64,000 nt of DNA. It comes from a virus. The notes below the pieces were generated by a model, which searched no databases, was not told where the DNA came from, and saw only the letters and a list, made by a program, of their open reading frames with translations. The DNA lies in IMG/VR virus record IMGVR_UViG_3300009081_000009, positions 32,001-96,000 of that record; one strand, given 5' to 3'. The translations under genes were made by a program, and so were the position numbers. This document shows, piece by piece, positions 1,748 to 35,297 of this stretch. The first letter of the stretch is position 1; each line of letters opens with the position of its first letter.

Positions 1748-1900
1748 ATGGAAGTTAATAAAAACATAATACCACCAGCGATAAATCCAGTAGCTCAAAT
1801 TAAAGTCCACACTAATAAAATATTAATGGATAGAACTATTATCGCTAATAGACCAATGACAGAAGAACAAAAATTAAACGTAAAACCATTATTCAGTTAA
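1748..1900 (+). CDS. 50-aa hypothetical protein
   Basis: MEVNKNIIPPAINPVAQIKVHTNKILMDRTIIANRPMTEEQKLNVKPLFS; GAGG SD and TATAAACTA upstream. Confidence 0.6.
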   Translation: MEVNKNIIPPAINPVAQIKVHTNKILMDRTIIANRPMTEEQKLNVKPLFS

Positions 1901-3669
1901 ATAAATTGTGATTTTGCTTTTGTTGTTGTAGGTGTTGGTACTTTAGGTTTCTTCTTAGTGGCTGCTTTCTTAGCAGCCTCTTTTTTAGATTTTACGGCAT
2001 CAGGATATACCGTAGCTTCAAAAATACCCTCAAGATTATACTCAATAACCGGAATATCATCCATATTATAATATGATTTGCGTGTCTTGTAATGTTGCAT
2101 TGAGTAATTTTCTTTCAATCTAGGTGTACCACCTTCATATCTAGGTTTTGTATAATAACTACAATCATCACACACATCAAATACACGAGCCAGTTTTTTA
2201 TCTTTATGTTTACGAACAATACGACCAATAGACTGAACTACCTCATACATTGATTTAGAGAACTCAGCAAATACCAAGTTATGTAATAATTTAATATTCA
2301 CACCCTGTTTCATGGTTCCGTAGGTAGCTATAATCATATTACCAGTACTGAATTCCATTTCCTTTCGTATGCGTTCTCTCTCGTCTGTGTCAATCTCACC
2401 TTTAATTATATAATATTTGAATTGTGGATATGTTTCTTTTAAATATGCATACATATCATCTAATGTAGCCTTAGACTTATATAATAAAACTGTATTTTCG
2501 GCAGTGGTTATCTTTCCAGACGTTATCAATAAATCCATTACACGTTTTCGACTACCATTATTGGTAATAAGTGAATACTCTTCTTGATAATTTTTTCTAT
2601 TTACTAATGCTCGTATTGAATCTAAGTAGGGAACTATTAATGTATGAACTTCAACTGGAGTTAATATTCCTTTCAATACTAATTCTTTAAGTCTTACTAT
2701 ATTCTCTTTTCTACCAAGAGCACCTTCTATCCACGCAGCATCTAAACCTTCGTCAGGTAATGTACCTGATAATCCTATCTTGAAATCGCTTGCGTTTGGA
2801 CATTTATCTAATATATCTCTAAGAATAGCACCACGAGTACCATGAGCCTCATCGACAATAACCGCAGTAAACACTTTAAAAAATGAGTCTGGTTTGTTTT
2901 GTAAACTCTGCCATGTGGATATTGTTATAGGACGAAGCATAACCTCTTCGCCTAAATTCAATGATTTTAAATTATCTTTCTGTTTGTTAGTTAATTTATC
3001 ACGCGAATCACCATGTATTAACGTACAATTATATTCGGCTCCATCCCATCCGTAATCTTCATAGAAATCACTATATAACTGTTCCACTAGGTTAGTTGAT
3101 GGAACCACAATCAATATTTTTTTCTTCTCAACTTCCATTAAATATCTAGATATTATGCACATGGATAACGACTTACCAGAAGATGTACATGCCAATAATG
3201 ATGACCGTCTTCCATTCAATGCTCGATCTACTAATTTAATTTGATGTTCATATGGTACTATGATAGTTCCATCACGTCTATTATGTAAATTAAGACCTTC
3301 TGCATATGCACTGATGGTCTCACGCGATATTACTCCGTTTGGTGATGTATATATACGCTTAACTTTGTCAGTTACTTTAATTCGTAATGATGGCTTTCTA
3401 TCCTTTAAATAATTAGTTGCTCTAGGTATTAAACCAATTGGTATTGTTTGTGTGTTTTTATTGTAAATATATACAACACCATCAGTAAATCCCTCTTCAT
3501 ATTCCCACGTATACATGGTTTTTGTATTAAAATATGAAAGACCAGCATACAATAAACTATTGATACTTATAATATCTTCTTTAGTAGGTGCTGATATGTT
3601 AATTATAGCATGAGTAGCATTTAATATATCAAACTCAACACAGTATTCGGAACCGATTGTATTATGCAT
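1897..3669 (-). CDS. uvsW: UvsW-like SF2 DNA helicase
   Basis: TSSGKS Walker A, ISTWQSL, VDEAH, GLSGT, QSIGR motifs. Confidence 0.92.
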   Translation of the reverse strand: MHNTIGSEYCVEFDILNATHAIINISAPTKEDIISINSLLYAGLSYFNTKTMYTWEYEEGFTDGVVYIYNKNTQTIPIGLIPRATNYLKDRKPSLRIKVTDKVKRIYTSPNGVISRETISAYAEGLNLHNRRDGTIIVPYEHQIKLVDRALNGRRSSLLACTSSGKSLSMCIISRYLMEVEKKKILIVVPSTNLVEQLYSDFYEDYGWDGAEYNCTLIHGDSRDKLTNKQKDNLKSLNLGEEVMLRPITISTWQSLQNKPDSFFKVFTAVIVDEAHGTRGAILRDILDKCPNASDFKIGLSGTLPDEGLDAAWIEGALGRKENIVRLKELVLKGILTPVEVHTLIVPYLDSIRALVNRKNYQEEYSLITNNGSRKRVMDLLITSGKITTAENTVLLYKSKATLDDMYAYLKETYPQFKYYIIKGEIDTDERERIRKEMEFSTGNMIIATYGTMKQGVNIKLLHNLVFAEFSKSMYEVVQSIGRIVRKHKDKKLARVFDVCDDCSYYTKPRYEGGTPRLKENYSMQHYKTRKSYYNMDDIPVIEYNLEGIFEATVYPDAVKSKKEAAKKAATKKKPKVPTPTTTKAKSQFI

Positions 3670-3703
3670 TAAATTATGAAACTGACTTTAGTATAAAATT
3701 ATA

Positions 3704-4759
3704 TTATTTTTTCCCCGAATTCATTACTTGATCCACTGAAACAGGTTTAATATTTTTATTTATTTCATCTTCATCAGGTGCTGATAGTATTTTACTCGCA
3801 TTAGATTCAGTAGGTTTAGATTCTTCTGTGTTTGTATTTACTATATCATTTACATCCACAGCTTCCGGTTCTACTGGTTCTTCTTCGATTGTGTCATCTT
3901 GAATTATGTTATTAACTGGCTCAGTTTTTAATTCAGGTTCTTTATTAATATTTTTAGATTCAACTGCATCATTTGCATCATTTAAAATATCAGATGCTCC
4001 ACTTTCAATATCTTTATTAAGTTGTTCACCAGCAGCATATAATGAATCTAATATAGGCTTACTCTCAGAAGGTGGTATTTCACGAGGTTTGCCACTTTCT
4101 GGCTGGGTTGGTTCTTTTATTTGTTCAATAGGAGTCTCACCTGAATCAACCTTTTCGGTTTTTTCAGTATCGACTTTATTCTTATTATCAAATTTTCGCA
4201 CTGCACTTACTATCTGGAATGCATTAGCAGGAAACACCTTAAATATTGCATGTAAATGTTTACACATGGTATTACTACCAGATGGATCTCGTATCACAGG
4301 AGCACTTGGTGCAGTTTGTGCGTTTTTTACTAGAGTTGGGTTTCCTTGTGCAAGTGATCCTTTATATTTACCATTTGGGCCACCATTATGCATCATACCA
4401 GCCCAATAAAAATCAGGACAATTACAATGAACTCTAACATCGGATTGAGTTAATATACTTTTGAATTTTTTTGGTTCCCATTTACTAACTAATGAAAATA
4501 ATCCACCTTCGGATGGGACTACGATTTCTACGACAGCATTGTATTTTAAGTTAGCGTCAGATGCACTCTGAACTTGCCAATGAGTTGCAGTATGTCCATC
4601 TGGGGTCTCATCTACATACTTATAAAATGCACCAAGTCCAGTTGCACGTGATTTTCTAGCTGGATCAACATGACTATCCAATTCAACAAATGAATGTTCC
4701 ATCAAAGGTTTTGGATATGTTGTCTGTAGATTTTCCAATAATTTTTTTACATTTATCAT
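3704..4759 (-). CDS. SWIM-type zinc finger protein with acidic low-complexity C-terminus
   Basis: VHCNCPDF...MCKHL (CxC...CxH). Confidence 0.7.
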   Translation of the reverse strand: MINVKKLLENLQTTYPKPLMEHSFVELDSHVDPARKSRATGLGAFYKYVDETPDGHTATHWQVQSASDANLKYNAVVEIVVPSEGGLFSLVSKWEPKKFKSILTQSDVRVHCNCPDFYWAGMMHNGGPNGKYKGSLAQGNPTLVKNAQTAPSAPVIRDPSGSNTMCKHLHAIFKVFPANAFQIVSAVRKFDNKNKVDTEKTEKVDSGETPIEQIKEPTQPESGKPREIPPSESKPILDSLYAAGEQLNKDIESGASDILNDANDAVESKNINKEPELKTEPVNNIIQDDTIEEEPVEPEAVDVNDIVNTNTEESKPTESNASKILSAPDEDEINKNIKPVSVDQVMNSGKK

Positions 4760-5661
4760 TATTCCACCGGATGAAATAAAAGATTATACTCAGTTTTATT
4801 CAGAATCATAATTAATTCAGAATCATTTATTTTAACAAATATTATATATTTGTCTGATTCATCTTTTAAACTAATATATTCGATTAATTCCTCACTTCCC
4901 GATTTTTTTGATCCCAATATCGCATATTTCTCACCAGTATCTGGTCTAGTTATTGAATTCTCGCGTTTTGTGTAATATGTATCAATATAACTAACAGGAA
5001 CTTCTCCCTTTGTGAGGACTGAATTAGTTCCCTTATTTGAATTAAAACATAAATATTTATCACCTTTACCAATATCAGATTCTTTACAAAATAGTAAATT
5101 CCTATATAATTCTTTCTTTGCATCTGATGTTACATTTAATATCTGCTTTATATCAGATTTAGTTAACAACCCATCAAGCATAGACTCATCTGCATTTTTT
5201 AAGTCTTCACTTAATTTAATTTCAGGATATCCATGAGATTTATCAATTAATGTCTTTGTCTTCGTTTCTTTAGGTTGTTTCGATTCAGGATCTTTAGGAG
5301 TATCTTTACTCACCAGTGCATCCTTTGGTTCTTTTTTGACTGTTTCTTTTGGTATTTCTACCGTTGCCTTTTTATTAACTGGTGTATCTTTTTCTATGTA
5401 AGGTTCTACTTTACTGACAGGCTCTTTCTTTTTGGATATATCATATATTTTCTTACCACCATCAGATTTACTATCCAATTCCATCAAATCAGGTCTTGTG
5501 CTTCTACTAGGTGGTGCTTGTTTTGGTGATTCACTACGTCTAGGTATTAATCCATTAGCTTCCAATAACGGTAATATTGAATCATTATTAGCAGAATCAA
5601 CCTTTTTTAGATAGTTTCCTTTCAGTGCTTCGCATAAAATTAAAAGATCCTGTTTTTTCAT
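4759..5661 (-). CDS. hypothetical protein (late promoter, K/E/P-rich linker)
   Basis: 300 aa ORF; GAGG SD; TATAAACTT on the - strand at 5682-5690. Confidence 0.75.
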   Translation of the reverse strand: MKKQDLLILCEALKGNYLKKVDSANNDSILPLLEANGLIPRRSESPKQAPPSRSTRPDLMELDSKSDGGKKIYDISKKKEPVSKVEPYIEKDTPVNKKATVEIPKETVKKEPKDALVSKDTPKDPESKQPKETKTKTLIDKSHGYPEIKLSEDLKNADESMLDGLLTKSDIKQILNVTSDAKKELYRNLLFCKESDIGKGDKYLCFNSNKGTNSVLTKGEVPVSYIDTYYTKRENSITRPDTGEKYAILGSKKSGSEELIEYISLKDESDKYIIFVKINDSELIMILNKTEYNLLFHPVE

Positions 5662-5681
5662 ATAAATTCCTCGATTATAAG

Positions 5682-5690
5682 AAGTTTATA
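5682..5690 (-). promoter_or_regulatory. late-type promoter TATAAACTT
   Basis: aagtttata on the + strand, 20 nt upstream of ATG 5661. Confidence 0.55.
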
Positions 5691-5693
5691 AAA

Positions 5694-5886
5694 AAGGGAA
5701 AACATAAATGGTATTTCTATTGTTATTGTAATTCTTATCTTTTTCCTTATTAATTTTAATAATTTTATTATTTTTTGATTTATTTAGTGATTTTCATTTT
5801 TTTATTTCAATTTCAGATATTAAGGGAAAACATAAATGGTATTCCTTTATTATTTATTCTAATTCTTATTTCTTCTTATAAACTTG
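5694..5886. repeat. two imperfect ~60-bp direct repeats with an identical 22-bp core AAGGGAAAACATAAATGGTATT, in an AT-rich intergenic region
   Basis: Core at 5694-5715 and 5822-5843 (128 bp apart), each followed by ...TTATT(G/C)TAATTCTTAT. Confidence 0.85.
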
Positions 5887-5941
5887 ACATATATTTGAAT
5901 CAGAATCTTAATTTTTTTACTTTTTACGTATATTTATCATA

Positions 5942-7369
5942 ATGGATACAAATCCGATCATTATTCAAGTGCCGATTCAGTTAAAAACTGATCTTTTAGG
6001 GTTATTGTTGCGCAATAAGCCTAAATTTGCATTTAATATTGATTATTTTTTATATGTCGTAGGGAAGATCATTCAAATTCCTCAATATAATTCAAAACTA
6101 AAAAATCTAAATAAAATTCCTTTATATTCTAAAATTCTTAGATATGAGTTAGGAAAGAATTATAGAAAGTATTTAGATTACATGATAGATAACAAATTAA
6201 TAGAAACTGACAATCATTATATTGTGTCGAGTCCATTAATTAATGGTAAATGTAAATGTTATGGATTATCACCAAAATATAGAAATGCGCCATTAGTCGA
6301 TCATGAGATAACCAGAAAAACACTATTAAAACAAATCATTAAATGGAAACTGAAAACCTTTGGAAATGTAAGTAATGATGAATTGCTTATTAAATTATAT
6401 GGTATGTTAGATGGATTTTCAATAGATATGGATGGAGCAACAAAATATCTATCTGATTCATTACATGCGAATGAAATAAGTCAGAAACAATATGATATAG
6501 AATTGCATAAGTGTGAGAAAATAAATAATAAATCTAATCCTAATCTGGGTTTATTCATATCAAAAGACTCATATAATCGAGTTCATACTAATTTCACTAA
6601 TATATCAAAAAATATACGAGAGAAATTTTTATTTCATAAAGGACATAAAGTAAAGGGTATTGATATAGTGTCATCTCAGGCATCTTTGCTATGCTCATTG
6701 TTCAGAGATTATGCCGATAAAATGACTAATAGTATAAAAAATCCATTAGAATTGCAGAGAGATGACTTTAGATATGATTTACGTGATAAATATGTGAATA
6801 AAAACAATAATTATAACGGTGATCCTATTCATAACGATATTAATAGTGAATTTTCATTATTTGGTCTTTCTCACATTGATAATACTGAATCAATGTTACA
6901 TAAGGAAATTAAAAAATTCACTAGCATTATGTCTATAGGTGGAATTTATGAATTTTTTCAGGAAAAATATGATGATTTATTTTCTGTAACGAAAACTAGA
7001 TCTGAGGTAAAAAAACGATGGATTGCTTATGTATTCGGTGCATATCAAGATGGAATCAACATAAAAAATGAAGAAAAATACATGATTCATAGCATATGGA
7101 AGCATGAATTTCCTACACTAACTAAGTTATTGAATCATTTTAAGTTATATGATTATAAAACATTGGCTCATAAACTACAGCGAATCGAAGCTGATTTAAT
7201 ATTTAATAAAGTATGTCCTGAAATAGATTCTAGGTTGGGTATCGAATATTGTACTGTGCATGACTCACTCATTGTTGAAGAACAATATTGCGAAGATGTC
7301 GCATTGATTTTTAATGAAATACTGGAAAAAAATCATATAATGACCTATGTAAAATTCGATGATGAGTAG
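5942..7369 (+). CDS. family A polymerase-like protein (DNA Pol I/T7 RNAP palm) lacking exonuclease domains
   Basis: NRVHTNFTN (pre-motif A), GIDIVSSQASLL (motif A), RSEVKKRWIAYVFG (motif B-like), LQRIEA, TVHDSLIV (motif C). Confidence 0.7.
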   Translation: MDTNPIIIQVPIQLKTDLLGLLLRNKPKFAFNIDYFLYVVGKIIQIPQYNSKLKNLNKIPLYSKILRYELGKNYRKYLDYMIDNKLIETDNHYIVSSPLINGKCKCYGLSPKYRNAPLVDHEITRKTLLKQIIKWKLKTFGNVSNDELLIKLYGMLDGFSIDMDGATKYLSDSLHANEISQKQYDIELHKCEKINNKSNPNLGLFISKDSYNRVHTNFTNISKNIREKFLFHKGHKVKGIDIVSSQASLLCSLFRDYADKMTNSIKNPLELQRDDFRYDLRDKYVNKNNNYNGDPIHNDINSEFSLFGLSHIDNTESMLHKEIKKFTSIMSIGGIYEFFQEKYDDLFSVTKTRSEVKKRWIAYVFGAYQDGINIKNEEKYMIHSIWKHEFPTLTKLLNHFKLYDYKTLAHKLQRIEADLIFNKVCPEIDSRLGIEYCTVHDSLIVEEQYCEDVALIFNEILEKNHIMTYVKFDDE

Positions 7370-7414: not shown

Positions 7415-7657
7415 ATGAAACGTGTAGGAATTATAGAGATTGGTAAAATTAGTATAGATGTTATTGGATTCGGTGAGTGGATATGCGAAGAGACTGTATT
7501 CGATGATGATATTGGTATTGAATTATCAATGCCTAAAGTAAAATTAGACTCAGGTGAAGAAATATTAGTTCGAGATGCTATGATAGCGGAAGAATATATA
7601 ATATTAAAAGAAATCGATTCATATAAAAGTAAAGGATTTATAATTAATCGTAAGTGA
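7415..7657 (+). CDS. hypothetical protein
   Basis: ATG at 7415 (MKRVGIIEIG...) preferred over the TTG at 7370. Confidence 0.65.
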   Translation: MKRVGIIEIGKISIDVIGFGEWICEETVFDDDIGIELSMPKVKLDSGEEILVRDAMIAEEYIILKEIDSYKSKGFIINRK

Positions 7658-7984: not shown

Positions 7985-8428
7985 TTACAACAGTAAGTCA
8001 TTAATTAAATTTGTTCGTTTTTCCATAATTAACTTACCTAATATATTAGAACCTACTGGTGGTGTTGATTTTAGACATACACCCCAATAGGTATCATTCC
8101 ACCAATTACCTTCCTGTATATATTCAGATCCAGTTTCTATTAATTTACTTCTATATGGTTCTTGATCATATTTTTGATCAATGCATAATTTCATAATAAC
8201 TAATTTTTTTACATCCCAATCAGATGGCAATGTTAATTCACGACCTTGTTTTTTGATTATCGCTGGATTCAATTCAGTTCTGCAAAATTCCTTCCATTCT
8301 ATTGAATCAGATTTAGCTGATACATATGCGTGTTCAACTGATGAATATTCAATTCCATCGAGTACTATTATACATGGTTTAAAATTTGATAACCATTCAT
8401 ATTTTTCTGATTTAAAATGTTCTATCAT
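7985..8428 (-). CDS. NADAR (YbiA-like) family protein
   Basis: WLSNF, YSSVEHAY..AK, W...K...M, KLIETG, EGNWWNDTYWG, GSNILGKLIM. Confidence 0.92.
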   Translation of the reverse strand: MIEHFKSEKYEWLSNFKPCIIVLDGIEYSSVEHAYVSAKSDSIEWKEFCRTELNPAIIKKQGRELTLPSDWDVKKLVIMKLCIDQKYDQEPYRSKLIETGSEYIQEGNWWNDTYWGVCLKSTPPVGSNILGKLIMEKRTNLINDLLL

Positions 8429-9577: not shown

Positions 9578-10480
9578 ATGGAACTCATTGCACTAGGAAC
9601 CGGAAACTCCAGAACTAAGAAAAACTGGCAATCAAACTTTCTATTTAGACAGAATCAAAAAACCATGGCTCTTGACTTTGGTACATATGCGCCTCTTGCT
9701 CTCGAAGAGAATCATATGACTACATTGGATTTAGATGCTATCTATATTAGTCACCTACATGCAGATCATACAGGTGGTCTTGAAGAATTGCTATTTGATA
9801 CATACTTTAATCCAAAAGCAAAACGACCTACATTATATTGCCAAGGTGAATATATTCGTGACTCCGAATCAAATACAATTATAAAAAGTGGATTAGTATC
9901 TGATTTATGGGATCATACTCTATCAGGTGGTGCAATTGGGTTAGAAGGAAAGATAGCAACGTTAGATACATATTTTGATGTGCGTGCTGTAAAGGATAAC
10001 TCATCTTTCATATGGGAAGGTGTTAAATTCGATATTGTCCAAACTATACATATTTGTGCGAAATATAGAATTGAAAATAGTTTTGGTCTTATGTGGAATG
10101 ATCCAGATACAAAGGAACGCATATACATAACAACCGATACACAATTCTGTCCAGTTAATGCAGCAATGGCGTATTTAAGAGAAGCTGATATTATTTATCA
10201 CGACTGCGAAACTACGCCATTTAAGAGTGGCGTTCATGCCCATTATAGCGAATTGGTAACATTACCAGCAGAAATAAAAGCTAAGATGTGGTTATATCAT
10301 TTTGATGATAGTATTATCATGAACTGGGATGTAATGAATGAAAAGGCTAAAAATGATGGATTCCTTGGATTCGTTCCAACGGGTGCTGTATTTGATCTTC
10401 ATTACAATAAATACAGTGTTGGTATGATTGGTAAGCAATCACATCATAATGAATACATGAAGACTCGAAATGCAGCATAA
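9578..10480 (+). CDS. MBL-fold metallo-hydrolase, Apyc1-like (anti-Pycsar) cyclic nucleotide phosphodiesterase
   Basis: LGTG, LDFG, ISHLHADHTGGLEE, LWDHTLSGG, TTDTQF, IYHDCE, GVHAHYSEL, LYHF. Confidence 0.8.
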   Translation: MELIALGTGNSRTKKNWQSNFLFRQNQKTMALDFGTYAPLALEENHMTTLDLDAIYISHLHADHTGGLEELLFDTYFNPKAKRPTLYCQGEYIRDSESNTIIKSGLVSDLWDHTLSGGAIGLEGKIATLDTYFDVRAVKDNSSFIWEGVKFDIVQTIHICAKYRIENSFGLMWNDPDTKERIYITTDTQFCPVNAAMAYLREADIIYHDCETTPFKSGVHAHYSELVTLPAEIKAKMWLYHFDDSIIMNWDVMNEKAKNDGFLGFVPTGAVFDLHYNKYSVGMIGKQSHHNEYMKTRNAA

Positions 10481-10955
10481 GATATATGCAGGAATAGGAT
10501 CTAGGGAAACCCCTAGATCCATTTTAGATATAATGACATCATGTGCATCTAGATTGGAAGCATTAAATTATACATTACGCAGTGGGCATGCTATTGGAGC
10601 AGACACTGCATTTGAATGTAATGTTCATAAAAAAGAAATTTTTATAGCAGATGATGCAACTTCGGATTCGATTGAATTAGCTTCTCATTTTCATGGATAT
10701 TGGGATAAATGTTCGTCATATGCTAAAAAGTTACATGGGCGAAATTCAATGATTCTATTAGGTAAGAATCTGGATACTCCAGTTAGGTTCGTTATATGTT
10801 GGACTAAAGATGGCAAAGATACTGGTGGTACTGGATTAGGAATACGAATAGCAGAAGCCTATAAAATTCCTGTATTCAATCTATATAATTATGATACAAA
10901 GATACGATTATTAGAATTTATTGGTATGAAATCATCTGATATCGATGTATTATGA
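10470..10955 (+). CDS. SLOG/DprA(Smf)-like Rossmann-fold protein
   Basis: YAGIGSRETP, LRSGHAIGAD.AFE, GGTGLGIRIA...IPVFNL. Confidence 0.8.
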   Translation: MQHKIYAGIGSRETPRSILDIMTSCASRLEALNYTLRSGHAIGADTAFECNVHKKEIFIADDATSDSIELASHFHGYWDKCSSYAKKLHGRNSMILLGKNLDTPVRFVICWTKDGKDTGGTGLGIRIAEAYKIPVFNLYNYDTKIRLLEFIGMKSSDIDVL

Positions 10956-10969
10956 ACTATATTTAAAAC

Positions 10970-11956
10970 ATGTCCGTAAATTACTACCAAATCCTTGAAA
11001 TTTCTCAAAATGCATCTGAAAGTGATATAAAAATATCATTTAAGAAATTAGCAGTTAAATACCATCCAGATAAACATAGCGGATTTGAGGATAAATTTAA
11101 AGAAATTAATGAGGCATACTCAACATTATCAGATCCTATTAAACGAAAGGAATATGATACTAAATTATCATTTTCATCTCAATTTAAGCGATGGGGTGCT
11201 GCGTTTGGAAAGCCAACTACAGCAACTAATTTTTCTCAGACGGCAAAGAAAGAAGCCCCTAAAGGTACTGATATACATGTATTTGCTGATGTTACATTAG
11301 ATGATTGTATACATGGTGCAAAAAAGATTATTACGGTAGAGTATGGATCGAGATGTCCATTATGTGATGGAACTGGTGCAAAAACACGAAAAAAATGTAC
11401 TGTATGTAAAGGCATCGGAATGGTAAAGAAAATTATTGATGGAGAAATTAAACCAGCACCTTGTACTAGCTGTAATAATTCAGGATTAATAATCGATGAT
11501 GTGTGTTTACATTGTAAAGGAACTGGATTAACTAAATCGAGTCGAGATATTGAGATAACAATTTCGAAAGGAATGAAAGATGGGGATGAAATCACTATAA
11601 AAGGAAGCGGTAATGCTGGATTTAATGGTGGTGCTTATGGTGATGTTAAGATATTTATTAATGAACTGCCTCATAAAGAATATACTCGTCATGGCAATGA
11701 TTTAAACATGAAATACGAAGTTTCTCCTATTGATCTTATACTGGGTAAAGAAATAATTGTAAATACTCCATATGGAATTGTAAATACAACTATCCCAATG
11801 GGAACACAGGTAAATTCTAGAATTAGAATTAAAGGTAAAGGAATATTGGATGGTGATTTATATGTTGGGTTTAACACTATAATACCAACTAATATTTCGG
11901 ATGATGAGATTGAATTATATAAAGAACTGAGAAAAATGGAATTTTCAAACCTATAA
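10970..11956 (+). CDS. dnaJ: DnaJ co-chaperone (J domain, Zn finger, C-terminal domain)
   Basis: YYQILEI, YHPDK, FKEINEAY, four CxxCxGxG-type repeats, C-terminal RIKGKG. Confidence 0.95.
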   Translation: MSVNYYQILEISQNASESDIKISFKKLAVKYHPDKHSGFEDKFKEINEAYSTLSDPIKRKEYDTKLSFSSQFKRWGAAFGKPTTATNFSQTAKKEAPKGTDIHVFADVTLDDCIHGAKKIITVEYGSRCPLCDGTGAKTRKKCTVCKGIGMVKKIIDGEIKPAPCTSCNNSGLIIDDVCLHCKGTGLTKSSRDIEITISKGMKDGDEITIKGSGNAGFNGGAYGDVKIFINELPHKEYTRHGNDLNMKYEVSPIDLILGKEIIVNTPYGIVNTTIPMGTQVNSRIRIKGKGILDGDLYVGFNTIIPTNISDDEIELYKELRKMEFSNL

Positions 11957-18890: not shown

Positions 18891-20141
18891 ATGTATTATA
18901 TGGCTGCTAAAAAAACATCGAAACCTGCTGTATTACCATCATTCGAATTTTTCCAGACTGTAAAGACTGGTGATAGATTCGCTGACAGTGGTAAGAAACG
19001 CGAAATTAAAACATGGATTGATACGGGATCATACACGCTAAATGCATTGATTTCTGGTGATATGACCAAGGGATTTCCGGGTAATAGAGCTGTTATGTTA
19101 GCTGGTGAACAAGCAGTGGGTAAAACCTTCTTCGCTGTATATGGATTTGCTCGTCCATTGGTTGAAATGGGATACTTTATTTTCTACATTGATACCGAAA
19201 ATGCTCTTACTGATGATACTTTGATTTCTTATGGATTACCAGAAGGCACATTTAAAATAATTTCACAGGATGTTGTCGAAGAGTTGAAGGTTAACTTTGA
19301 TACAATTTTAACTCAGCTAGAAGAAGCCCGTGGTAAGTCACTTGAGAATAAGAATAAGTGCGCATTCGTACTTGACTCTCAGGGTATGTTGGATACATTG
19401 AAGAGTCGTGCTGACATCCAGAAAGAAAATTATGTTAATGATATGACAGCACAAAAGGAATTGAAGAGATTATATCGATCAATTTTGGTAAGAATGGGTG
19501 AATTGGAAATTCCTCTGTTGATTACTAACCACGTTTACGCCAATATTGGTGGTTATGGTGATCCAACTAAGGTAGCTGGTGGTAGTGGTGGCTTATATGC
19601 ATCAACTGTTATTCTTCACATGAGAAAGAAACAGTATAAAGAAGGTGAGATTCGAAAGGGAACTATCATTACTGCGAAAAATATAAAGAGTCGTATATGC
19701 CGTGATGGACTTGAATCATCTGTATATTTAAATTTTGAAAAGGGTTTAAATAAATGGTATGGATTGCATTTATTTGCTGTTGACGCTGACCTTATCGAAA
19801 AATGGAGTGCTAAAGAATTTGATAAAAAAGGTGTTATTGGCCCAGAAAAAGCGGGTAATTCAACATTCTATGTTATCAAAGATCCAAAACTAACTCCTGA
19901 TAAGTGGATTGTTTGCAAAGAAACCGAATTACATAAACAAAGCACGATTGGAACCATATTCAATGAAATAAATGAATATGTGAAAGAAACGTTCAAGCTA
20001 TGTAATCCAGCAGACTTTGATTATGGTGATGATAATCCAGATGAAGAAGAATTGGATATCTTAGAAGATAATCTTAAAGATGCTGATACCGTTGTTACCA
20101 AGGCAAAAAAAGCTGGTAAGTCAATTACATCAGATGAATAA
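18891..20141 (+). CDS. uvsX: UvsX/RecA-like recombinase
   Basis: IDTGSYTLNALISG, AGEQAVGKT, IDTE, LDSQGML, TNHVY, GGSG. Confidence 0.93.
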   Translation: MYYMAAKKTSKPAVLPSFEFFQTVKTGDRFADSGKKREIKTWIDTGSYTLNALISGDMTKGFPGNRAVMLAGEQAVGKTFFAVYGFARPLVEMGYFIFYIDTENALTDDTLISYGLPEGTFKIISQDVVEELKVNFDTILTQLEEARGKSLENKNKCAFVLDSQGMLDTLKSRADIQKENYVNDMTAQKELKRLYRSILVRMGELEIPLLITNHVYANIGGYGDPTKVAGGSGGLYASTVILHMRKKQYKEGEIRKGTIITAKNIKSRICRDGLESSVYLNFEKGLNKWYGLHLFAVDADLIEKWSAKEFDKKGVIGPEKAGNSTFYVIKDPKLTPDKWIVCKETELHKQSTIGTIFNEINEYVKETFKLCNPADFDYGDDNPDEEELDILEDNLKDADTVVTKAKKAGKSITSDE

Positions 20142-20233: not shown

Positions 20234-21778
20234 ATGGCAGAAGTTCAAGATCTAACACGCGAAGACTTAGTGTTACGTAAATTTTTTGATGATTCTATAA
20301 TACAGAATAGAATCGTTAGTCATTTGTCATGTGATTTATTTGACGATCCCGATAATAAGAGAATATGTGATTTCATCATTAGGTTTAATAAAAAATTTAA
20401 AAAGTATCCAAGTCCACAAGAATTAATAACTTCTCTACCCCCATGTAGAGAACGCACTAAAATAATATTTATAAATAATGTTAATATTCCTCATATGGAG
20501 AGGGATTTTACTATTGCCATGATTGAAAGTTTCTTCAAAGAGAAGAAAACTGAAATGATTTTAAGTAGTGCAGCCGAATTCATGCATGACGGGCATATAG
20601 ATAATATCAGTGATCTAGTAAAAGATTTACATAATGCTGTTAATTTTTCTCTCAATCTAGATATTGGCTTAAATATGGTTGAAGATGCAAAGGTAGCACT
20701 TGATAGATTGAATAAATCATTGGTTGCAGTTCCTTCAGCATTATCATTCATTCGTCAGGCAACTGCTCCTCCGAATGGCTTTGGTGGGCATTATAGAAAG
20801 GCTCTAGCCGTTTATTATGGTATGCCTAACGTAGGTAAGTCTATCTTATTATGTAACGATGCAGCCTATGCATATCAGGCTGGTTATAATGTTCTATATA
20901 TAACAATGGAAATGGCAGAAGAGCTTATATGGGAAAGAATAGCATCTAATATAAGTAATATAGAACTTGGTGCAATTAGAGGTAGAACCGCAGAAGAGAT
21001 TCAGGCATTATTGATAGGAAATAAATTAGAGGGTGCTGAAAGTGCTGGTACATTATATGTGAAAGCATTACCAACTACAGCAACTGTAAATGATTTTGAA
21101 AATGAAATTATTGAAATCAAGAGAACCAAAGGCATTGATGTTGACTTGTTAGTCGTTGATTATATTGGTATTATGAAACCAGCTAAGAGAGAAGGTTCAT
21201 TTAAAGATCATACTCTATACACTATGATTAAGGAAAGTGCTGAACAGTTGCGTGATTTAGCTAAAGCTAGATGTATTGCGGTTGTTACTGCTTCTCAGTT
21301 GAAACGTGAAGGTTATGAGAATAAAGAAGCTAGTATGAAGGATGTAGCTGGTTCGGTTGGTTTGAATGATACGGCTGATTTTGTTATTACTATTACTCAA
21401 GATCCATTGCTAAAACAATGTGGGTTGTATGCTCATATGATATTAAAAAATAGATTTGGGCAGAATAGTATTCCGGGAATGTCTAGAGTAGATTATACCC
21501 ACATGAGAGTAACCACTGCTACTAATGACGATACTGACAAATATACAGATTTGCAAATGAATCAAACACAATCGATTCCAGAATTTAATGCAAATCGTAT
21601 GGAAGTTGGTGGCTCATCAAAAACACAGATGAAGGATAAAGGTGGATATAGTCCTAGAGTAAATCCAAAGGCTAAGAAATCAACAAAAGAACCAGAACCA
21701 AAGCAAAAAGAAACTCCTGAATTTGATGTCGATAATCAGCCCGATGGATATGTAGACTCATCTGATGTTGTATTTTGA
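20234..21778 (+). CDS. gp41: gp41-like DnaB replicative helicase
   Basis: GMPNVGKS, YITMEMAEE, VVDYIGIM, TASQLKR, KNRFG. Confidence 0.92.
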   Translation: MAEVQDLTREDLVLRKFFDDSIIQNRIVSHLSCDLFDDPDNKRICDFIIRFNKKFKKYPSPQELITSLPPCRERTKIIFINNVNIPHMERDFTIAMIESFFKEKKTEMILSSAAEFMHDGHIDNISDLVKDLHNAVNFSLNLDIGLNMVEDAKVALDRLNKSLVAVPSALSFIRQATAPPNGFGGHYRKALAVYYGMPNVGKSILLCNDAAYAYQAGYNVLYITMEMAEELIWERIASNISNIELGAIRGRTAEEIQALLIGNKLEGAESAGTLYVKALPTTATVNDFENEIIEIKRTKGIDVDLLVVDYIGIMKPAKREGSFKDHTLYTMIKESAEQLRDLAKARCIAVVTASQLKREGYENKEASMKDVAGSVGLNDTADFVITITQDPLLKQCGLYAHMILKNRFGQNSIPGMSRVDYTHMRVTTATNDDTDKYTDLQMNQTQSIPEFNANRMEVGGSSKTQMKDKGGYSPRVNPKAKKSTKEPEPKQKETPEFDVDNQPDGYVDSSDVVF

Positions 21779-23933: not shown

Positions 23934-24149
23934 ATGAAAAAATACAATGAAATAATAACAAATGCAATAGATACCGAATATACAAGATATAACGGATTAT
24001 CTAATATATTAATTGATCTTGAGTTTACATCATCTATGAGAAGATATGGGAAAACGAAAAATATCACTCGTTTTCGAAATTCTTTACTATATTTAGGGAT
24101 GATAGAAGAAACTTTACAAGCATTAAAAGATGGTACACACAAAATTTGA
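23934..24149 (+). CDS. hypothetical protein
   Basis: MKKYNEII...; ATG 23907 lies inside the terminator, so 23934 is preferred. Confidence 0.5.
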   Translation: MKKYNEIITNAIDTEYTRYNGLSNILIDLEFTSSMRRYGKTKNITRFRNSLLYLGMIEETLQALKDGTHKI

Positions 24150-25356
24150 CGAAGGTAGAATACCAGATTCCGTATTTCATGATGCGGTTCAAGAAGTATT
24201 AGGTAACTGTTCATTATCCTGTAATTCTACAGGAACTGAATATACCTTTCATTGTCCTATGTGTGGAGGTCATACAAAGAATCGTAACATCAAATGTGGC
24301 TATGTGTATAGTGATACATGGAAATACAAATGTTATAATGAATGTGGATCTATGTCATTCCTATATTTCTTAAAAAAAGAACATCATGATGTATGGAAAA
24401 AAGTGATATTTCATGCATTTGATAATTCTAAACGAGACAAGAAAAAAGTAGTTGTAAAAACAAGAGTACAAAAAACATACAATGCTAATAACCTATATAA
24501 GTTTAAAGATGGTGAATTAATCGATATAACCGATTCTGATAATCCAGTTGCTGTTGAAGCATTAAAATATTGTATAAGTCGAAAAATACGAAAAGACGTA
24601 TATAAAAAATGGTTTGTCTGTATACGAGATGATAAATTTTTCGACAGAGATGCTAAAGGTGAACTTGTTTATAATGATAAAGGATATCCTAAAGGCAATG
24701 AATATGGCAATCGGATAATAATACCATATTATAAGTATGGTGGTAAATGGGTACAATTCGATGCTAGATCACTAGACCCAAATCCATTTCTACGATATAA
24801 GAATCTAGCTGATGCTGATCGCGAGATGTATAACATTGATTTTATAAATGTAAACGAACCGTTCTTTCTTCTTGAGGGAGCCATAGATTCTACATTTATA
24901 CGAAACTCAATTGCATTTGGTGGAACTCAGCATCTTATGAAGTTTCTGGAGCAATACCCAGAATTAAAGAAGAATGCACATAATGGTACTGTTATTTGGG
25001 ACAACGATGAAGCTGGACGAGATGAGATGCCTAAAACCGTTAAACTTGGATTTAACTGGTTTGAATGGACTGATATAATACCAACGGATGAGTATAAGTA
25101 TAATTCTGATGGAACACTTAGAATAATTAAAGATGTGAATAATGCCGTTATGTATAGTGATGCATTTAGATTGGATAAAAATGGTTTTATTGTTTTTGAT
25201 GATATAAAAAAGTATATTAGAAAGGCAGAAGGTGCATCTGTTAAACTCACATTACTGTATGGTAACAGAGTTAAAATGAAATTTGAAAAAAATAGAAATT
25301 TATCAAATGCACTAAAAACTAAAAACGTAAAAAAAGTTATAGTACCATATTTCTAA
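24130..25356 (+). CDS. gp61: gp61-like DNA primase
   Basis: CPMCG...CYNECG Zn ribbon, RIIIPY, LLEGAIDS (TOPRIM), WDNDEAG, KDVN. Confidence 0.92.
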   Translation: MVHTKFDEGRIPDSVFHDAVQEVLGNCSLSCNSTGTEYTFHCPMCGGHTKNRNIKCGYVYSDTWKYKCYNECGSMSFLYFLKKEHHDVWKKVIFHAFDNSKRDKKKVVVKTRVQKTYNANNLYKFKDGELIDITDSDNPVAVEALKYCISRKIRKDVYKKWFVCIRDDKFFDRDAKGELVYNDKGYPKGNEYGNRIIIPYYKYGGKWVQFDARSLDPNPFLRYKNLADADREMYNIDFINVNEPFFLLEGAIDSTFIRNSIAFGGTQHLMKFLEQYPELKKNAHNGTVIWDNDEAGRDEMPKTVKLGFNWFEWTDIIPTDEYKYNSDGTLRIIKDVNNAVMYSDAFRLDKNGFIVFDDIKKYIRKAEGASVKLTLLYGNRVKMKFEKNRNLSNALKTKNVKKVIVPYF

Positions 25357-32447: not shown

Positions 32448-35297
32448 ATGCAAGAAGAACAGACTAAAAAGTCTATGTGGTCAGCTATTCACCACGATAG
32501 AGCAAAAAACTTAATGTTCCTATGGTACACAGATGGAACTAGAACAGCAGTAAGAACAAAACACAGATTTTTTACCCCAATACGTGGAGAATATGGATCA
32601 TCTCCTAGTGGTATGAAAGATATTTATGGTCGTGATATGTATGAGGCCATAGTTGATAGTCGTACTGAAATGGATATAAAAAATGCCAACATAGGAAGAC
32701 ATAATCACATTTCTGAATGTGATATCGATTTTAGAACTAGATGGCTTCAACGAGCATATCAAGAATATGATGACCTTAGATTTAATGTAAAGGATATCAA
32801 TATATGTTATCTTGATATTGAGGTGGCTACTAAAGGTAAATTCCCATCCGCATCTAAAGCAGCCTACCCAATCAATTGTGTTACTATTTATTTTTCTAAA
32901 TATGACAAATATTATACATACGGATTAAATCAAGAACTTAAACCTGAGACAACGGAAACTCTTAAATCACATAACTGTGAATATATTAATTGTGCTACTG
33001 AAAGAGAGTTATTACATAAATTATTCACTGCTATTGGAACTAATGAAGTCGATATATTAACTCATTGGAATGGTGATTTTTTCGATATTCCTTATATAGT
33101 GAAACGAGCTGAATTACTGGAAGTCCCTCTTAAATTATTGAGTAGATTACCTGAACAATTTAAAAGTGCTTATATAAGCAAGCAAGATGGTTCCCTTATA
33201 ATTGGTGGAACTGAGAATATTGACTTTTTAAAACTATATAGAAAGTATACGTTCTCCGAACGCGATAACTATAAATTAGATACCATCGGTTTTGTTGAAT
33301 GTGGTGAACGAAAAGCACCATTACCTAATGGATATTTAAGTTATATGACTGACTGGGATAACTTTATCCTATATAACTTTCAAGACGTTAGACTTATGAC
33401 TAAGATTGAAGGTAATTGTCGAATGTTCGATACTACCTTTACTGCATGTTCGGAAGCAAAGGTTCCATTCTCTGCTATATTTGAAGCTAAGAAGATGCTT
33501 GTAGGATTTATATTGAACTTCCTACACAAGCGTAATCTTGTAATGCCTCCTCTTAAAGAAAATACACGTGAATGGTTTCCGGGTGCATATGTATATGCAA
33601 CAGCAGGATATTATCTACATCTAGTGTCCTATGACTATAGATCTATGTATCCCTCTATTATGATGGGTGCTAATATTAGTCCAGAAACAAAGGTATTGTA
33701 TCCTATAGATGAAGTAATCCCAGAGGAAATATTAAAAACCCTTGTTCGAAGTCCATGGACAGGAAATAATACCCGACAAGTATTTTATAGACGAGATGTT
33801 ACAGGTATTGTGCCTCAAGTTGTTAAGATATTGTTTGATGGTCGTACAGATCTGAAATTGCTAATGAAAAAAGCTAGTAAAGCTGGTGATACTCATTTAG
33901 CTGATTTCTATGACATGAAGCAGAAAACGTACAAAATTTTAGGTAATTCTCTATATGGCTTATTGGGTAATCCATACTTCCAGTTATATGATATTGATAA
34001 TTCAGCATCAATTACTGCATTCGGACAGGCATTAATCACTAGCACAGTTGATCAATTATGTACGTACATAGATACTCAAATGAGTTCGGATGCTAGATTT
34101 GATGCGTTATTTGGTTATAAAGCACCCATAGATCCTGCATTAACCGGAACATATGAAAACAAAGAAGGGTTAACTATGTATCGTCGTGTAAGTCATGGCG
34201 ATACCGACTCTTTCTTCGTAAAATATACCGACATATATAAGCCATATATGGAAAATGTTGGAAAAAAAGTAGAAGTTATTGTATTTAATGGCACTACTGT
34301 TGTCGAAAGAAATACATATAATCTTCCTACTGAAGAAATAGCATCTAAGAAATATTTTAATGCGATGTGTACTAAGTATTGTCCATCATGGACAGATCCT
34401 GAAACAGATGATAAGAAAAAGAAAAAAGCATTTGCCGAGGGAATCGTATTCGGTAAAGGATATCGTGTCATATATAACAGATTCTGTCTAACTGATTTCT
34501 GTCGTATTATGGATGCTGGTATCATGGAAGAAAAATTAGCTGAATTCATGAGTGATTATGCTAAGCATTGGAATTACTATGAAAACACTTTATTCCTTAA
34601 ACGTGAAAAGTGTATTCATCAAGCTATTGTTACTGCAAAAAAGAAATACATCTGTAATATTGAAAGCAACGAAGATGAAAAATATTTAGATAAAGAAACG
34701 TTTTTACCTAAAGAAAAATTCGGCATCACTGGTCTTGAAATAGTTCGTAGTTCAACCACACCATTTTCTAGAGATAGAATTATGAAGTTGATAAAAATGA
34801 TGTTTAAGACCATGGATAAAGCAATTATTCGTGATGAATATCTAAAGGTAAAGATCGAGTTCTTCCAGAAAATTGATAGAGGTGAATACTACGATATATC
34901 AATTCCATCTGGTGTTAAATCCGATCCACCTAAATATTCTGACTATATCACGTGGAGTGATGAGGAGAAAACTAAAGTTGACTGGAGACTTCGCGCAGGG
35001 TCTGTGTGGAATTTCTTAATAGAAAACGACGAGGTTCTGAAAAATATGACATTAGAACCAATTTTTGAAGCATCTAAAGTAAAGTTTATTAAAGTTTGTG
35101 AGAACAAATATAAAATAAACGCAGTTGCTTTCGTTGGTGATAAATGCCCTGATAGATTATTTGAAATATTCACTCCTAATTGGGATGAACAATGGATAAA
35201 AACATTTGCTCAAACTATGGATAGACTATTTGATGCAGTAGGTTGGGGTGTTGGATTGGAAAATGATGAACGTGATACTATGGTAGATATACTTTAA
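32448..35297 (+). CDS. gp43: gp43-like family B DNA polymerase
   Basis: ExoI LDIEV, ExoII WNGDFFDIPY, ExoIII YNFQDV, motif A DYRSMYPSI, motif B KILGNSLYG, motif C GDTDS, KKKY. Confidence 0.96.
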   Translation: MQEEQTKKSMWSAIHHDRAKNLMFLWYTDGTRTAVRTKHRFFTPIRGEYGSSPSGMKDIYGRDMYEAIVDSRTEMDIKNANIGRHNHISECDIDFRTRWLQRAYQEYDDLRFNVKDINICYLDIEVATKGKFPSASKAAYPINCVTIYFSKYDKYYTYGLNQELKPETTETLKSHNCEYINCATERELLHKLFTAIGTNEVDILTHWNGDFFDIPYIVKRAELLEVPLKLLSRLPEQFKSAYISKQDGSLIIGGTENIDFLKLYRKYTFSERDNYKLDTIGFVECGERKAPLPNGYLSYMTDWDNFILYNFQDVRLMTKIEGNCRMFDTTFTACSEAKVPFSAIFEAKKMLVGFILNFLHKRNLVMPPLKENTREWFPGAYVYATAGYYLHLVSYDYRSMYPSIMMGANISPETKVLYPIDEVIPEEILKTLVRSPWTGNNTRQVFYRRDVTGIVPQVVKILFDGRTDLKLLMKKASKAGDTHLADFYDMKQKTYKILGNSLYGLLGNPYFQLYDIDNSASITAFGQALITSTVDQLCTYIDTQMSSDARFDALFGYKAPIDPALTGTYENKEGLTMYRRVSHGDTDSFFVKYTDIYKPYMENVGKKVEVIVFNGTTVVERNTYNLPTEEIASKKYFNAMCTKYCPSWTDPETDDKKKKKAFAEGIVFGKGYRVIYNRFCLTDFCRIMDAGIMEEKLAEFMSDYAKHWNYYENTLFLKREKCIHQAIVTAKKKYICNIESNEDEKYLDKETFLPKEKFGITGLEIVRSSTTPFSRDRIMKLIKMMFKTMDKAIIRDEYLKVKIEFFQKIDRGEYYDISIPSGVKSDPPKYSDYITWSDEEKTKVDWRLRAGSVWNFLIENDEVLKNMTLEPIFEASKVKFIKVCENKYKINAVAFVGDKCPDRLFEIFTPNWDEQWIKTFAQTMDRLFDAVGWGVGLENDERDTMVDIL

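Follow-up and report, generated by a model that had tools for sequence, protein, structure and literature searches.

The DNA considered here is a stretch of 64,000 nucleotides (nt), referred to as the window, which covers positions 32,001 to 96,000 of the IMG/VR virus record IMGVR_UViG_3300009081_000009. One of its genes, here called POL, encodes a protein with the predicted fold of a minimal family A polymerase, and the intergenic gap directly upstream of POL contains two copies of a short, conserved box (Table 1). The contig that holds the window is viral, 164.7 kb long and an estimated 39% complete, and its annotation includes a T4-type replisome and myovirus tail genes. As the initial annotation of the window had stated, the genome already encodes a full family B polymerase (PolB) and a primase, so that POL, present in one copy per contig, is a second polymerase gene in a genome with replication proteins of the T4 kind.

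Table 1. Positions of the POL gene, its parts and neighbouring features, counted from the first letter of the window
Feature	Position	Strand	Basis or remarks
UvsW-orthologous SF2 helicase	1897..3669	-	Pfam ResIII/DEAD/Helicase_C; PHROG DNA helicase
p351, CxC...CxH (SWIM-like) motif	3704..4759	-	no family match; motif read by eye from sequence
p300, first gene of the leftward operon from the gap	4759..5661	-	no family match; synteny weakly kept
Divergent intergenic gap	5662..5941	.	280 bp, 82% A+T, coding-strand switch, contig cumulative GC-skew minimum
Box copy 1	5694..5719	+	core AAAACATA at 5699-5706; C/T-rich tract to ~5761
Box copy 2	5822..5847	+	core AAAACATA at 5827-5834; C/T-rich tract to ~5889
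Minimal family A (TV-Pol-like) polymerase gene (POL)	5942..7369	+	open reading frame, homologues, AlphaFold2 model, structure searches
N-terminal domain, residues ~1-125, winged-helix-like, putative DNA-binding	5942..6316	+	model topology, weak fold matches
Helical region, residues ~126-205, thumb-like	6317..6556	+	helices 126-145, 147-156, 163-175, 181-195
Palm and fingers, residues ~206-475	6557..7366	+	invariant columns, model, Klenow match
Beta-hairpin Arg R213	6578-6580	+	hairpin strands 206-208/214-216
Motif A D241	6662-6664	+
Q246	6677-6679	+
Motif B R353/K357/F365	6998-7036	+
Q413/E416	7178-7189	+
Motif C H440-D441-S442	7259-7267	+
p80	7415..7654	+	80 aa when counted from M16 of a 95-aa open reading frame; SH3/Tudor-like beta-barrel model
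UvsX	18891-20141		encoded in window
DnaB/gp41-like helicase	20234-21778		encoded in window
DnaG-type primase	24130-25356		encoded in window
Family B polymerase (PolB), full	32448-35297		encoded in window

A predicted family A core behind a winged-helix-like domain

The POL open reading frame (ORF) specifies 475 amino acids (aa), from an ATG start to a TAG stop. Its product has no match in Pfam or NCBIfam, no significant match in PHROGs and only chance-level rows among PDB sequences, and neither POL nor any of 68 relatives matches DNA_pol_A (PF00476) or RNA_pol (PF00940) at E ≤ 1. The family to which it belongs is sizeable and unnamed. A word-indexed search returned 52 homologues of 35-99% identity, nearly all of ~470-490 aa. 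When HMMER was run exhaustively over 1.84 billion cluster representatives, 1,475 scored at E ≤ 1e-3, of which 413 reached E ≤ 1e-10. All eight family members whose source names were looked up are called 'hypothetical protein', and one ESM Atlas cluster carries the automatic name 'putative DNA-directed DNA polymerase family A palm domain-containing protein'. No fused longer forms were found among proteins of 1,090-3,110 aa, the range searched, and no D5 fusion was seen there. A broad profile of the family found nothing significant in the PDB, its lone echo being the N4 RNA polymerase (RNAP) II at E 0.36 (not significant). Comparison of the family profile by hhalign with the single sequences of T7 DNA polymerase (DNAP), T7 RNAP and N4 gp16 gave insignificant probabilities, and these alignments served solely as motif anchors; the anchors for motifs A, B and C agree with T7 DNAP and N4 RNAP II.

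The initial annotation had likened the protein to Pol I and T7 RNAP, and searches with its predicted structure bear this out. An AlphaFold2 model built on a 35-sequence alignment has a mean pLDDT of 87.4 and a pTM of 0.75. The top rows of a Foldseek search of the PDB with this model are family A polymerases only (E 3e-6 to 4e-4, probability 1.00), all of the Pol I type: the Plasmodium apicoplast polymerase, the Pol I of Aquifex and of M. smegmatis, and the Bst, Taq and Klenow enzymes. A Foldseek-independent comparison with 48,161 representative chains (VIA-align) places Klenow at Z 14.3 (rmsd 3.8 over 251 aligned residues), and other DNA polymerases follow closely (Pol theta 14.3, Aquifex Pol I 13.8, T7 DNAP 12.6, Pol nu 12.2). 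The same comparison adds the single-subunit RNA polymerases, with Z 12.7 for the yeast mitochondrial enzyme (mtRNAP), 10.4 for T7 RNAP and 9.0 for N4 RNAP II; unrelated folds appear from Z ~6. The family A matches begin at residues 140-146 and cover the model from ~142 to 475. No 3'-5' exonuclease domain is present in the model, and before the start of the match lies a small helical, winged-helix-like domain, in agreement with the earlier claim that the protein lacks an exonuclease. On the strength of the model, then, the fold of POL is the thumb, palm and fingers of family A (Pol I / T7 RNAP), without an exonuclease.

The conserved residues fall where such a fold would need them. Two alignments were used, one of 35 close relatives and one of 68 sequences with a mean column identity of 19%. 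All of the palm motifs quoted in the initial annotation are present and lie on invariant or near-invariant columns, in the alignment of 35 and, mostly, in that of 68. They read R213-V-H215-T-N-F-T-N, D241-I-V-S-S-Q246, R353-x-x-x-K357...F365-G, K401, L412-Q413-x-x-E416 and V439-H440-D441. Residues R213, R226, D241, Y336, K357, P391, E416, T438, H440 and D441 are the same in all 68 sequences, and those invariant among the 35 include H215, T216, N217, Q246, R353, F365, K401, L412 and Q413. The presumed catalytic set (R213, D241, R353xxxK357, Q413 and H440-D441) is thus invariant, or nearly so, among the 68 relatives. In the secondary structure of the model the palm sheet is made of strands 235-242, 437-439 and 442-446; D241 closes the first of these, and H440-D441 occupy the turn between the other two. 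The two aspartates are thereby placed on adjacent palm strands, and their predicted placement is the canonical geometry of motifs A and C. The helices of residues ~126-205 presumably form the thumb, given their position at the start of the polymerase-domain match.

The N-terminal domain is less clear cut. Its predicted topology is helix-helix-wing (helices 63-70 and 74-83, then strands 87-89/106-109), and residues ~9-115 align over 80-87 residues with the winged helices of Fur, TFIIE-alpha and ORC at Z 5.0-6.2, which is weak. A winged helix spanning the N-terminal ~200 aa had been proposed earlier; the winged-helix-like character stands, albeit at these low scores, but its extent shrinks to residues ~9-125, the remainder being the helical, thumb-like region. 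Among ESM Atlas look-alikes of the first 140 residues, the same unnamed families come first, and more distant ones include a cluster with an AEP Prim-Pol in 83% of its members (TM 0.54) and a MarR-type helix-turn-helix (TM 0.49). These last likenesses, between predicted structures, are hints only. The domain is kept in both the phage branch and the mobile-element branch of the family described below.

The upstream gap and its boxes

The repeats that the initial annotation had placed beside POL are real. The two boxes are direct repeats of ~26 nt, spaced 128 nt apart, for which 0 chance matches are expected. The distance to the ATG of the leftward gene is 33 nt for box 1, and that to the ATG of POL is ~100 nt for box 2. 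The C/T-rich tracts that follow the boxes have a mean pyrimidine fraction of 0.66, and both copies in the window reach 0.72; across the window, the 99th percentile is 0.68.

Conservation of the box greatly exceeds that of its surroundings. The core GGGAAAACATAAATGG, or a close variant, was found in the equivalent gap of every relative with the divergent arrangement that was examined (ten loci including the window). Two copies are present in the related loci L002, L008 (variants), L055 and L057, the pair in L055 having the same 128-nt spacing as in the window, and L003, L004, L006, L007 and L056 also carry the box. Within a box of ~22 nt, the 8-mer AAAACATA is invariant in 15 of 15 aligned copies from the 10 loci, while the POL proteins of these loci are 33-61% identical and the proteins flanking the boxes have diverged to 40-60% identity. 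In the locus L058, where the genes are co-directional, a variant of the box is located at the 5' end of the annotated POL ORF, probably upstream of the true GTG start.

The box is also largely confined to this site. At 0-1 mismatch it occurs solely in this gap in five contigs of 54-165 kb, twice in the 164.7-kb contig and one to two times in each of four related contigs, and a reversed-pattern control gave none. An exact 16-mer of the box has 36 matches in IMG/VR; POL adjoins it only in 4 syntenic contigs that were already known, and the remaining matches are judged, by a rough estimate for a collection of this size, to be due to chance. No Rfam family matches the gap, and a conserved hairpin at the box was considered and rejected, the possible stems being inconsistent between copies.

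Several further sequence features accompany the boxes. A second element, (A)GTTTAT(A), lies at 5683-5690 between the leftward start codon and the first box, and is present at variable distance in every locus (L002-L008 and L055-L057). The sequence TATATTT(A/G) at 5929-5936 directly precedes the POL ATG and is found ~5-8 nt before it in L002, L003 and L006; it resembles TAnnTTTG, the -7 promoter box of Bacteroidota, and its position suggests a POL mRNA that is leaderless or has a very short leader. Finally, the public gene calls P0026, P0036 and P0046 (L055 5001-5046, L056 5001-5157 and L058 5001-~5060) appear to start too early. Their N-terminal 'extensions' read through the box or its second copy (KEKHNGIP, for example, corresponds to GAAAAACATAATGGTATACC) and, judged from this reading, are probably non-coding.

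Relatives in phages and in integrative elements

The order of genes around POL is RuvC-like, UvsW-like helicase, p351 and p300, all leftward, followed by POL, p80, p92, NADAR, GT2, an Apyc1-like metallo-beta-lactamase, DprA-like and DnaJ. A survey of gene neighbourhoods showed this order to be kept, wholly or largely, in nine or more independent contigs whose POL proteins are 33-61% identical, with the UvsW linkage and the box retained beside POL; synteny persists at identities as low as 33-41%. The helicase (two genes from POL in the window) matches 2,544 phage records, mostly T4-like and many of them annotated UvsW, at 29-33% identity over 81-92% of its length, and it is linked to POL in every close relative. 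Even in the rearranged locus L058, which reads UvsW, a 225-aa gene and POL, all co-directional, the linkage is retained. No integrase or transposase lies within 6 kb of POL in the phage loci, except for unrelated cargo in L058. A quick tree (SH-aLRT support only, midpoint root) separates a branch of Bacteroidota elements from a phage branch with 99% support and groups the syntenic jumbo-phage set within the latter with 96%; given the method, no direction of transfer between the two branches is claimed. Because synteny is kept across diverged contigs and the tree sets the phage branch apart, POL is a stable, fixed core gene in this phage lineage rather than a recent selfish insert.

Another association with replication was found in the 340-kb huge-phage contig L009. 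There, the gene of a full-length family member (E 1.8e-60 and 100% probability in hhalign) shares 4 nt with the beginning of a canonical DNA_pol_A gene. The second gene (L009 7035-8324) encodes a short stand-alone DNA_pol_A protein of 429 aa with an H-D-G motif C, translationally coupled to the family member; an aspartate/ornithine carbamoyltransferase-like protein is encoded at L009 4283-5170.

Immediately downstream of POL, p80 has orthologues in the same position in L002, L003, L006, L055 and L056 and after a gap in L007, and is absent in L057. Its model has a pLDDT of 92.9, and its fold matches are weak (Z ≤ 5.1). [quoted passage not shown] A predicted complex of POL with p80 scored 0.00, below the mark, and nothing is inferred from it.

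The remaining neighbours are of more general interest. Beside UvsW in all relatives, p351 combines a sequence resembling a SWIM zinc finger (HCNCPDFYW...CKHLH) with an extended acidic tail of low complexity. This conserved early block also encodes a NADAR-domain protein (7985-8428, minus strand), possibly involved in ADP-ribose processing, and a DprA-like recombination mediator (10470-10955, plus strand; PHROG 768, E 9e-51). Between them, at 9578-10480 on the plus strand, is a 300-aa protein of metallo-beta-lactamase fold that passes Pfam's cutoff for Anti-Pycsar Apyc1 (E 3.5e-24) and is syntenic in related phages; going by this match, it is likely an anti-CBASS/Pycsar cyclic-nucleotide nuclease. 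A full-length DnaJ-type co-chaperone (10970-11956, plus strand), with a J domain, a CxxCxGxG zinc finger and a C-terminal domain, is lineage-wide and present also in L056 and L057. Two insertions interrupt otherwise syntenic early regions, an IS605 OrfB/TnpB (Cas12f-like) gene in L058 (9225-10418) and an RRXRR-domain gene in L056 (7242-8246).

Outside the phages, the relatives of POL with 25-37% identity are nearly all on Bacteroidota chromosomes, where a single peptide pattern led to 114 confirmed loci. Of 78 Bacteroidota loci, 45 have a tyrosine integrase no more than 6 kb away. The immediate upstream neighbours of these element relatives (n = 143) include HTH_17 in 23 cases, a tyrosine integrase with an arm-binding domain in 13-15, AAA_24 in 7 and a serine resolvase in 2; AAA_24 and AAA_25 ATPases adjoin the POL relative in a minority of element loci, the AAA_25 being directly upstream in L065. 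Only 1 of 72,556 plasmids carries a homologue. This is a 35-kb Hymenobacter plasmid (L147, NZ_CP060788.1), on which the homologue at 2824-4398 is followed by ~2.1 kb free of annotated genes (4398-6500), and which has its own Rep and ParA elsewhere.

The initial annotation knew of no characterized T4-like counterpart. That much holds: a tblastn comparison with 50,697 phage records turned up matches only in 6 uncultured huge phages, and none in a cultured T4-like phage. What had been overlooked is the closest precedent, the TV-Pols and the CcPol-MP pair (PMC2579912, PMC7581432). TV-Pols, described by Iyer, Abhiman and Aravind in 2008, are minimal family A polymerases that were predicted to be primase-polymerases (PMC2579912). 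Their thumb consists of two helices, their beta-hairpin carries an Arg that is absolutely conserved, the palm has two aspartates and the fingers an RxxxK; nucleases are never part of them, and some have a globular domain at the N terminus (PMC2579912). They occur in Bacteroidetes and other bacteria near integrases, resolvases and transposases, and in viruses that retain their own polymerases (PMC2579912). One TV-Pol has been tested, the CcPol of SCCmec, which uses dNTPs and, in its complex with the small protein MP, is capable of de novo priming (PMC7581432, PMC10061031). By itself CcPol is a primer-dependent DNA polymerase that prefers dNTPs and retains a Glu (E174) equivalent to E710 of Klenow (PMC7581432).

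POL has every architectural feature of a TV-Pol, namely the helices at 126-195, the R213 hairpin, D241/D441 and R353/K357, without a nuclease. Its distant relatives are found in integrative elements, and the phage keeps its own PolB. Yet POL differs in that a D5-type helicase is neither fused nor adjacent to it, that it belongs to the fixed core genes of a lineage of T4-like jumbo phages, located beside UvsW and with a conserved cis box, and that its profile has no link to Pol I or T7 RNAP, whereas the authors who reported a TV-Pol in Ma-LMM01 reached Pol I by PSI-BLAST (PMC2579912). With the family profile, the Ma-LMM01 genome gave no match at E ≤ 10, an empty answer that in this search shows nothing either way. 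Because no sequence-profile link joins POL to a published TV-Pol, to Pol I or to T7 RNAP, we file it as TV-Pol-like and not as a proven TV-Pol; by sequence profile it belongs to a separate, unnamed family, and its likeness to TV-Pols is one of architecture and context.

The likeness extends in part to CcPol-MP and the PolA-SSB pairs of Bacillota (PMC7581432, PMC10061031). In both cases the genome of a virus or mobile element encodes a truncated A-family polymerase without an exonuclease; the next gene downstream is small and conserved, and a helicase gene is nearby. The particulars differ. CcPol has a Glu at the steric gate where POL has Gln246 or Ser248, and the N terminus of CcPol is a truncated exonuclease remnant whereas that of POL is an added winged-helix-like domain. 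The small gene beside POL encodes an SH3/Tudor-like barrel, not a recognizable OB-fold SSB, and is missing from some loci, and the helicase is UvsW (SF2) rather than Cch2.

Possible roles in phage replication

By analogy with TV-Pol, with CcPol and with its own relatives in elements, POL may be an active polymerase that starts DNA synthesis or makes primers when the phage replicates, possibly at the AAAACATA boxes. We prefer this proposal and hold it tentatively, as plausible though somewhat short of probable. The N-terminal winged-helix-like domain would target POL to DNA, possibly to the one or two AAAACATA boxes upstream of its own gene; the family A core would make or extend a short primer of RNA or DNA; and the primer would be handed to the T4-type replisome (PolB, the gp41-like helicase and the DnaG-type primase). 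An association of POL with replication is evident in the UvsW linkage of close relatives and in the coupling to a DNA_pol_A gene in the 340-kb contig. The initial annotation had already suggested a sequence-specific polymerase that primes at an origin; this is plausible, and the circumstantial case for it has grown with the retention of the box beside POL in relatives, the position of the box at the GC-skew minimum and the linkage to UvsW. A more ambitious version, in which this single polypeptide is both the recognizer of an origin and the synthase of the first primer at the boxes of a T4-like jumbo phage, is in our estimate unlikely. In that version the winged helix would bind the boxes, the A+T- and pyrimidine-rich tract would open, the core would start a chain de novo for extension by the PolB replisome, and the neighbouring UvsW might clear or regulate the intermediate.

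There are parallels for such an arrangement. The origins of phage T4 consist of a promoter and an A+T-rich unwinding element and are primed from R-loops, which UvsW unwinds (PMC3016281). The gap upstream of POL resembles oriF and oriG of T4 in having a short element followed by an A+T-rich region near uvsW (T4 oriF is 0.9 kb from uvsW). It differs in that T4 uses the host RNAP with MotA and in that the sequences are unrelated, and the gap is a candidate origin only. In T7, two tandem promoters, phi1.1A and phi1.1B, lie right beside the gene for a family A RNAP, and together they form the primary T7 origin.

Several observations weigh against an initiating role. With a DnaG-type primase and PolB already present, a second priming enzyme is not obviously needed, and a pairing of the CcPol-MP type is unsupported because p80 is an SH3/Tudor-like barrel and is absent from L057. 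The family profile has no significant match to the Pfam polymerase families, to PDB chains or to the Ma-LMM01 genome. The box was not found in the element branch (0 sense matches in 77 loci) or in more divergent phage loci, so that recognition of the box is not a family-wide property. The GC-skew minimum at the gap coincides with the switch of coding strand and is therefore not independent evidence of an origin. A role as sole replicase might have been visible on plasmids, but that test is uninformative because the single plasmid with a homologue has its own Rep. Moreover, the boxes could be ordinary promoter or operator sites of two divergent operons, as in all ten divergent loci the first box is 15-50 nt from the leftward start codon with a conserved GTTTATA beside it.

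This last point leads to another explanation of the repeats, that they are cis-regulatory (promoter, operator or leader) sequences of the divergent operons, perhaps bound by the winged helix of POL in autoregulation or by some other factor, and are not a catalytic substrate. We regard this as a real possibility, if not the outcome we expect; it concerns nothing but the repeats, and POL could have any enzymatic role alongside it. Besides their position between divergent genes, the reverse complement of the box, TATGTTTT, resembles the Bacteroidota -7 box TAnnTTTG, and the gap contains sigma-70-like hexamers, at chance frequency. As a promoter of the -7 type, however, the box was rejected, TAnnTTTG not being enriched upstream of the genes of the contig (20 sense versus 15 antisense). 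At least 16 identical bases across genomes whose proteins are 40-60% identical, in a sequence unique within its contig, exceed what a host promoter usually needs, and in L058 the box variant goes with POL and not with the leftward operon.

Alternatively, POL may be a dedicated RNAP in the manner of N4 RNAP II or T7 RNAP, with the boxes as phage-specific promoters for one or a few units, serving expression rather than priming. The active site is where this idea has most to draw on. Family A DNA polymerases have H-D-E at motif C, while the POL family has H-D-S/C throughout, as do the single-subunit RNAPs. The motif A of POL, D241-I-V-S-S-Q246-A-S248-L-L, aligns without gaps to D-A-T-S-S-G-L-Q of N4 RNAP II, the enzyme that was also the lone echo in the PDB, and it partially matches the D-x-x-x-S-G-x-Q-H of T7-like RNAPs (reference motifs from the literature, anchored on the T7 and N4 sequences). 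The ungapped alignment puts Q246 at the position of E710 in Klenow and G542 in T7 RNAP. If the S-Q of POL is instead aligned on the S-Q of Pol I, the steric-gate position is occupied by S/A/T248. At neither candidate is there a Glu in any of the 35 close relatives. The Z scores of mtRNAP and T7 RNAP, a box length like that of single-subunit RNAP promoters and the tandem promoters adjoining the T7 RNAP gene agree with an RNAP as well, and N4 RNAP II (gp15/gp16) and the T7-like enzymes share with POL the family A palm and fingers, the D-x-x-S-S-x spacing of motif A and a small size.

Nonetheless, a dedicated RNAP seems to us rather improbable. A box that occurs one to two times per contig does not make a general transcription system, and DNA polymerases score equally well or better in the structure comparisons. 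Motif B of POL, R353-S-E-V-K357-K-R-W-I-A-Y-V-F365-G, aligns to the R..K...YG of T7 DNAP and N4 gp16 and has Phe in place of the conserved Tyr of the single-subunit RNAPs; F365 occupies the position of Y766 in Klenow and Y639 in T7 RNAP, and the change Y639F makes the latter less selective for rNTPs. Being isosteric with Glu, Gln246 might gate against rNTPs all the same. At 475 aa POL has no equivalent of the promoter-recognizing N-terminal domain or the specificity loop of T7 RNAP, and it shows no PF00940 match and no significant sequence similarity to these enzymes. It also differs from N4 RNAP II in being a single chain with a winged-helix-like N terminus and in having its candidate box only once or twice per genome. 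The sequence is compatible with either RNA or DNA as the product of POL. Should a transcript made by such an RNAP serve as the primer at an origin, this explanation would merge with the initiating role that we prefer.

It is also conceivable that POL is a primer-dependent DNA polymerase for repair, gap filling or recombination that works with UvsW and the RuvC-like resolvase, does not start chains de novo and has nothing to do with the boxes. The linkage to those two genes is in keeping with this, as is the DprA-like gene nearby, and the minor-groove readers of Klenow, R668 and Q849, appear to be matched by the conserved R213 and Q413. That CcPol alone depends on a primer fits too (PMC7581432). 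We nevertheless give this explanation little probability: a domain resembling a sequence reader at the N terminus would be unusual in a repair polymerase, the element relatives reside in integrase-HTH_17 cassettes without repair genes, and the box stays by POL even in the rearranged locus. Weakest is the suggestion of the initial annotation that POL is a selfish replicon module, which would have inserted into the phage and copy itself by way of flanking repeats. Integrases, resolvases and transposases do accompany distant relatives in the integrative elements of Bacteroidota, and TV-Pols are typical of such elements (PMC2579912). For this copy the suggestion is nevertheless very improbable in view of the same flanking order in at least nine independent contigs of wide divergence (POL identity 33-61%), the absence of an integrase or transposase within 6 kb in the phage loci bar the unrelated L058 cargo, the location of both boxes on one side so that the gene is not flanked, and the single copy of POL per contig.

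A role for POL in initiating or priming replication would bear on a process, the choice and firing of origins in large T4-like phages, that is known in detail only for T4, which borrows the host RNAP. A lineage of uncultured jumbo phages carries an extra, uncharacterized family A polymerase with a putative DNA-binding head, and beside its gene is a short DNA element whose conservation exceeds that of every part of the proteins encoded around it; together, POL and the box make a testable pair of enzyme and site for origin-specific priming. The TV-Pol idea, predicted in 2008 and tested in one distant member only, would be extended by a large unnamed family of ~1,500 cluster representatives, widespread in Bacteroidota elements and huge phages. 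A compact polymerase without an exonuclease, and possibly with relaxed sugar selectivity, could interest enzyme engineers. If the fuller version were true, in which POL itself recognizes the origin, the phage would encode its own substitute for the R-loop priming by host RNAP that T4 uses at oriF and oriG, and POL would be the first initiator-polymerase of family A to have sequence targeting built in.

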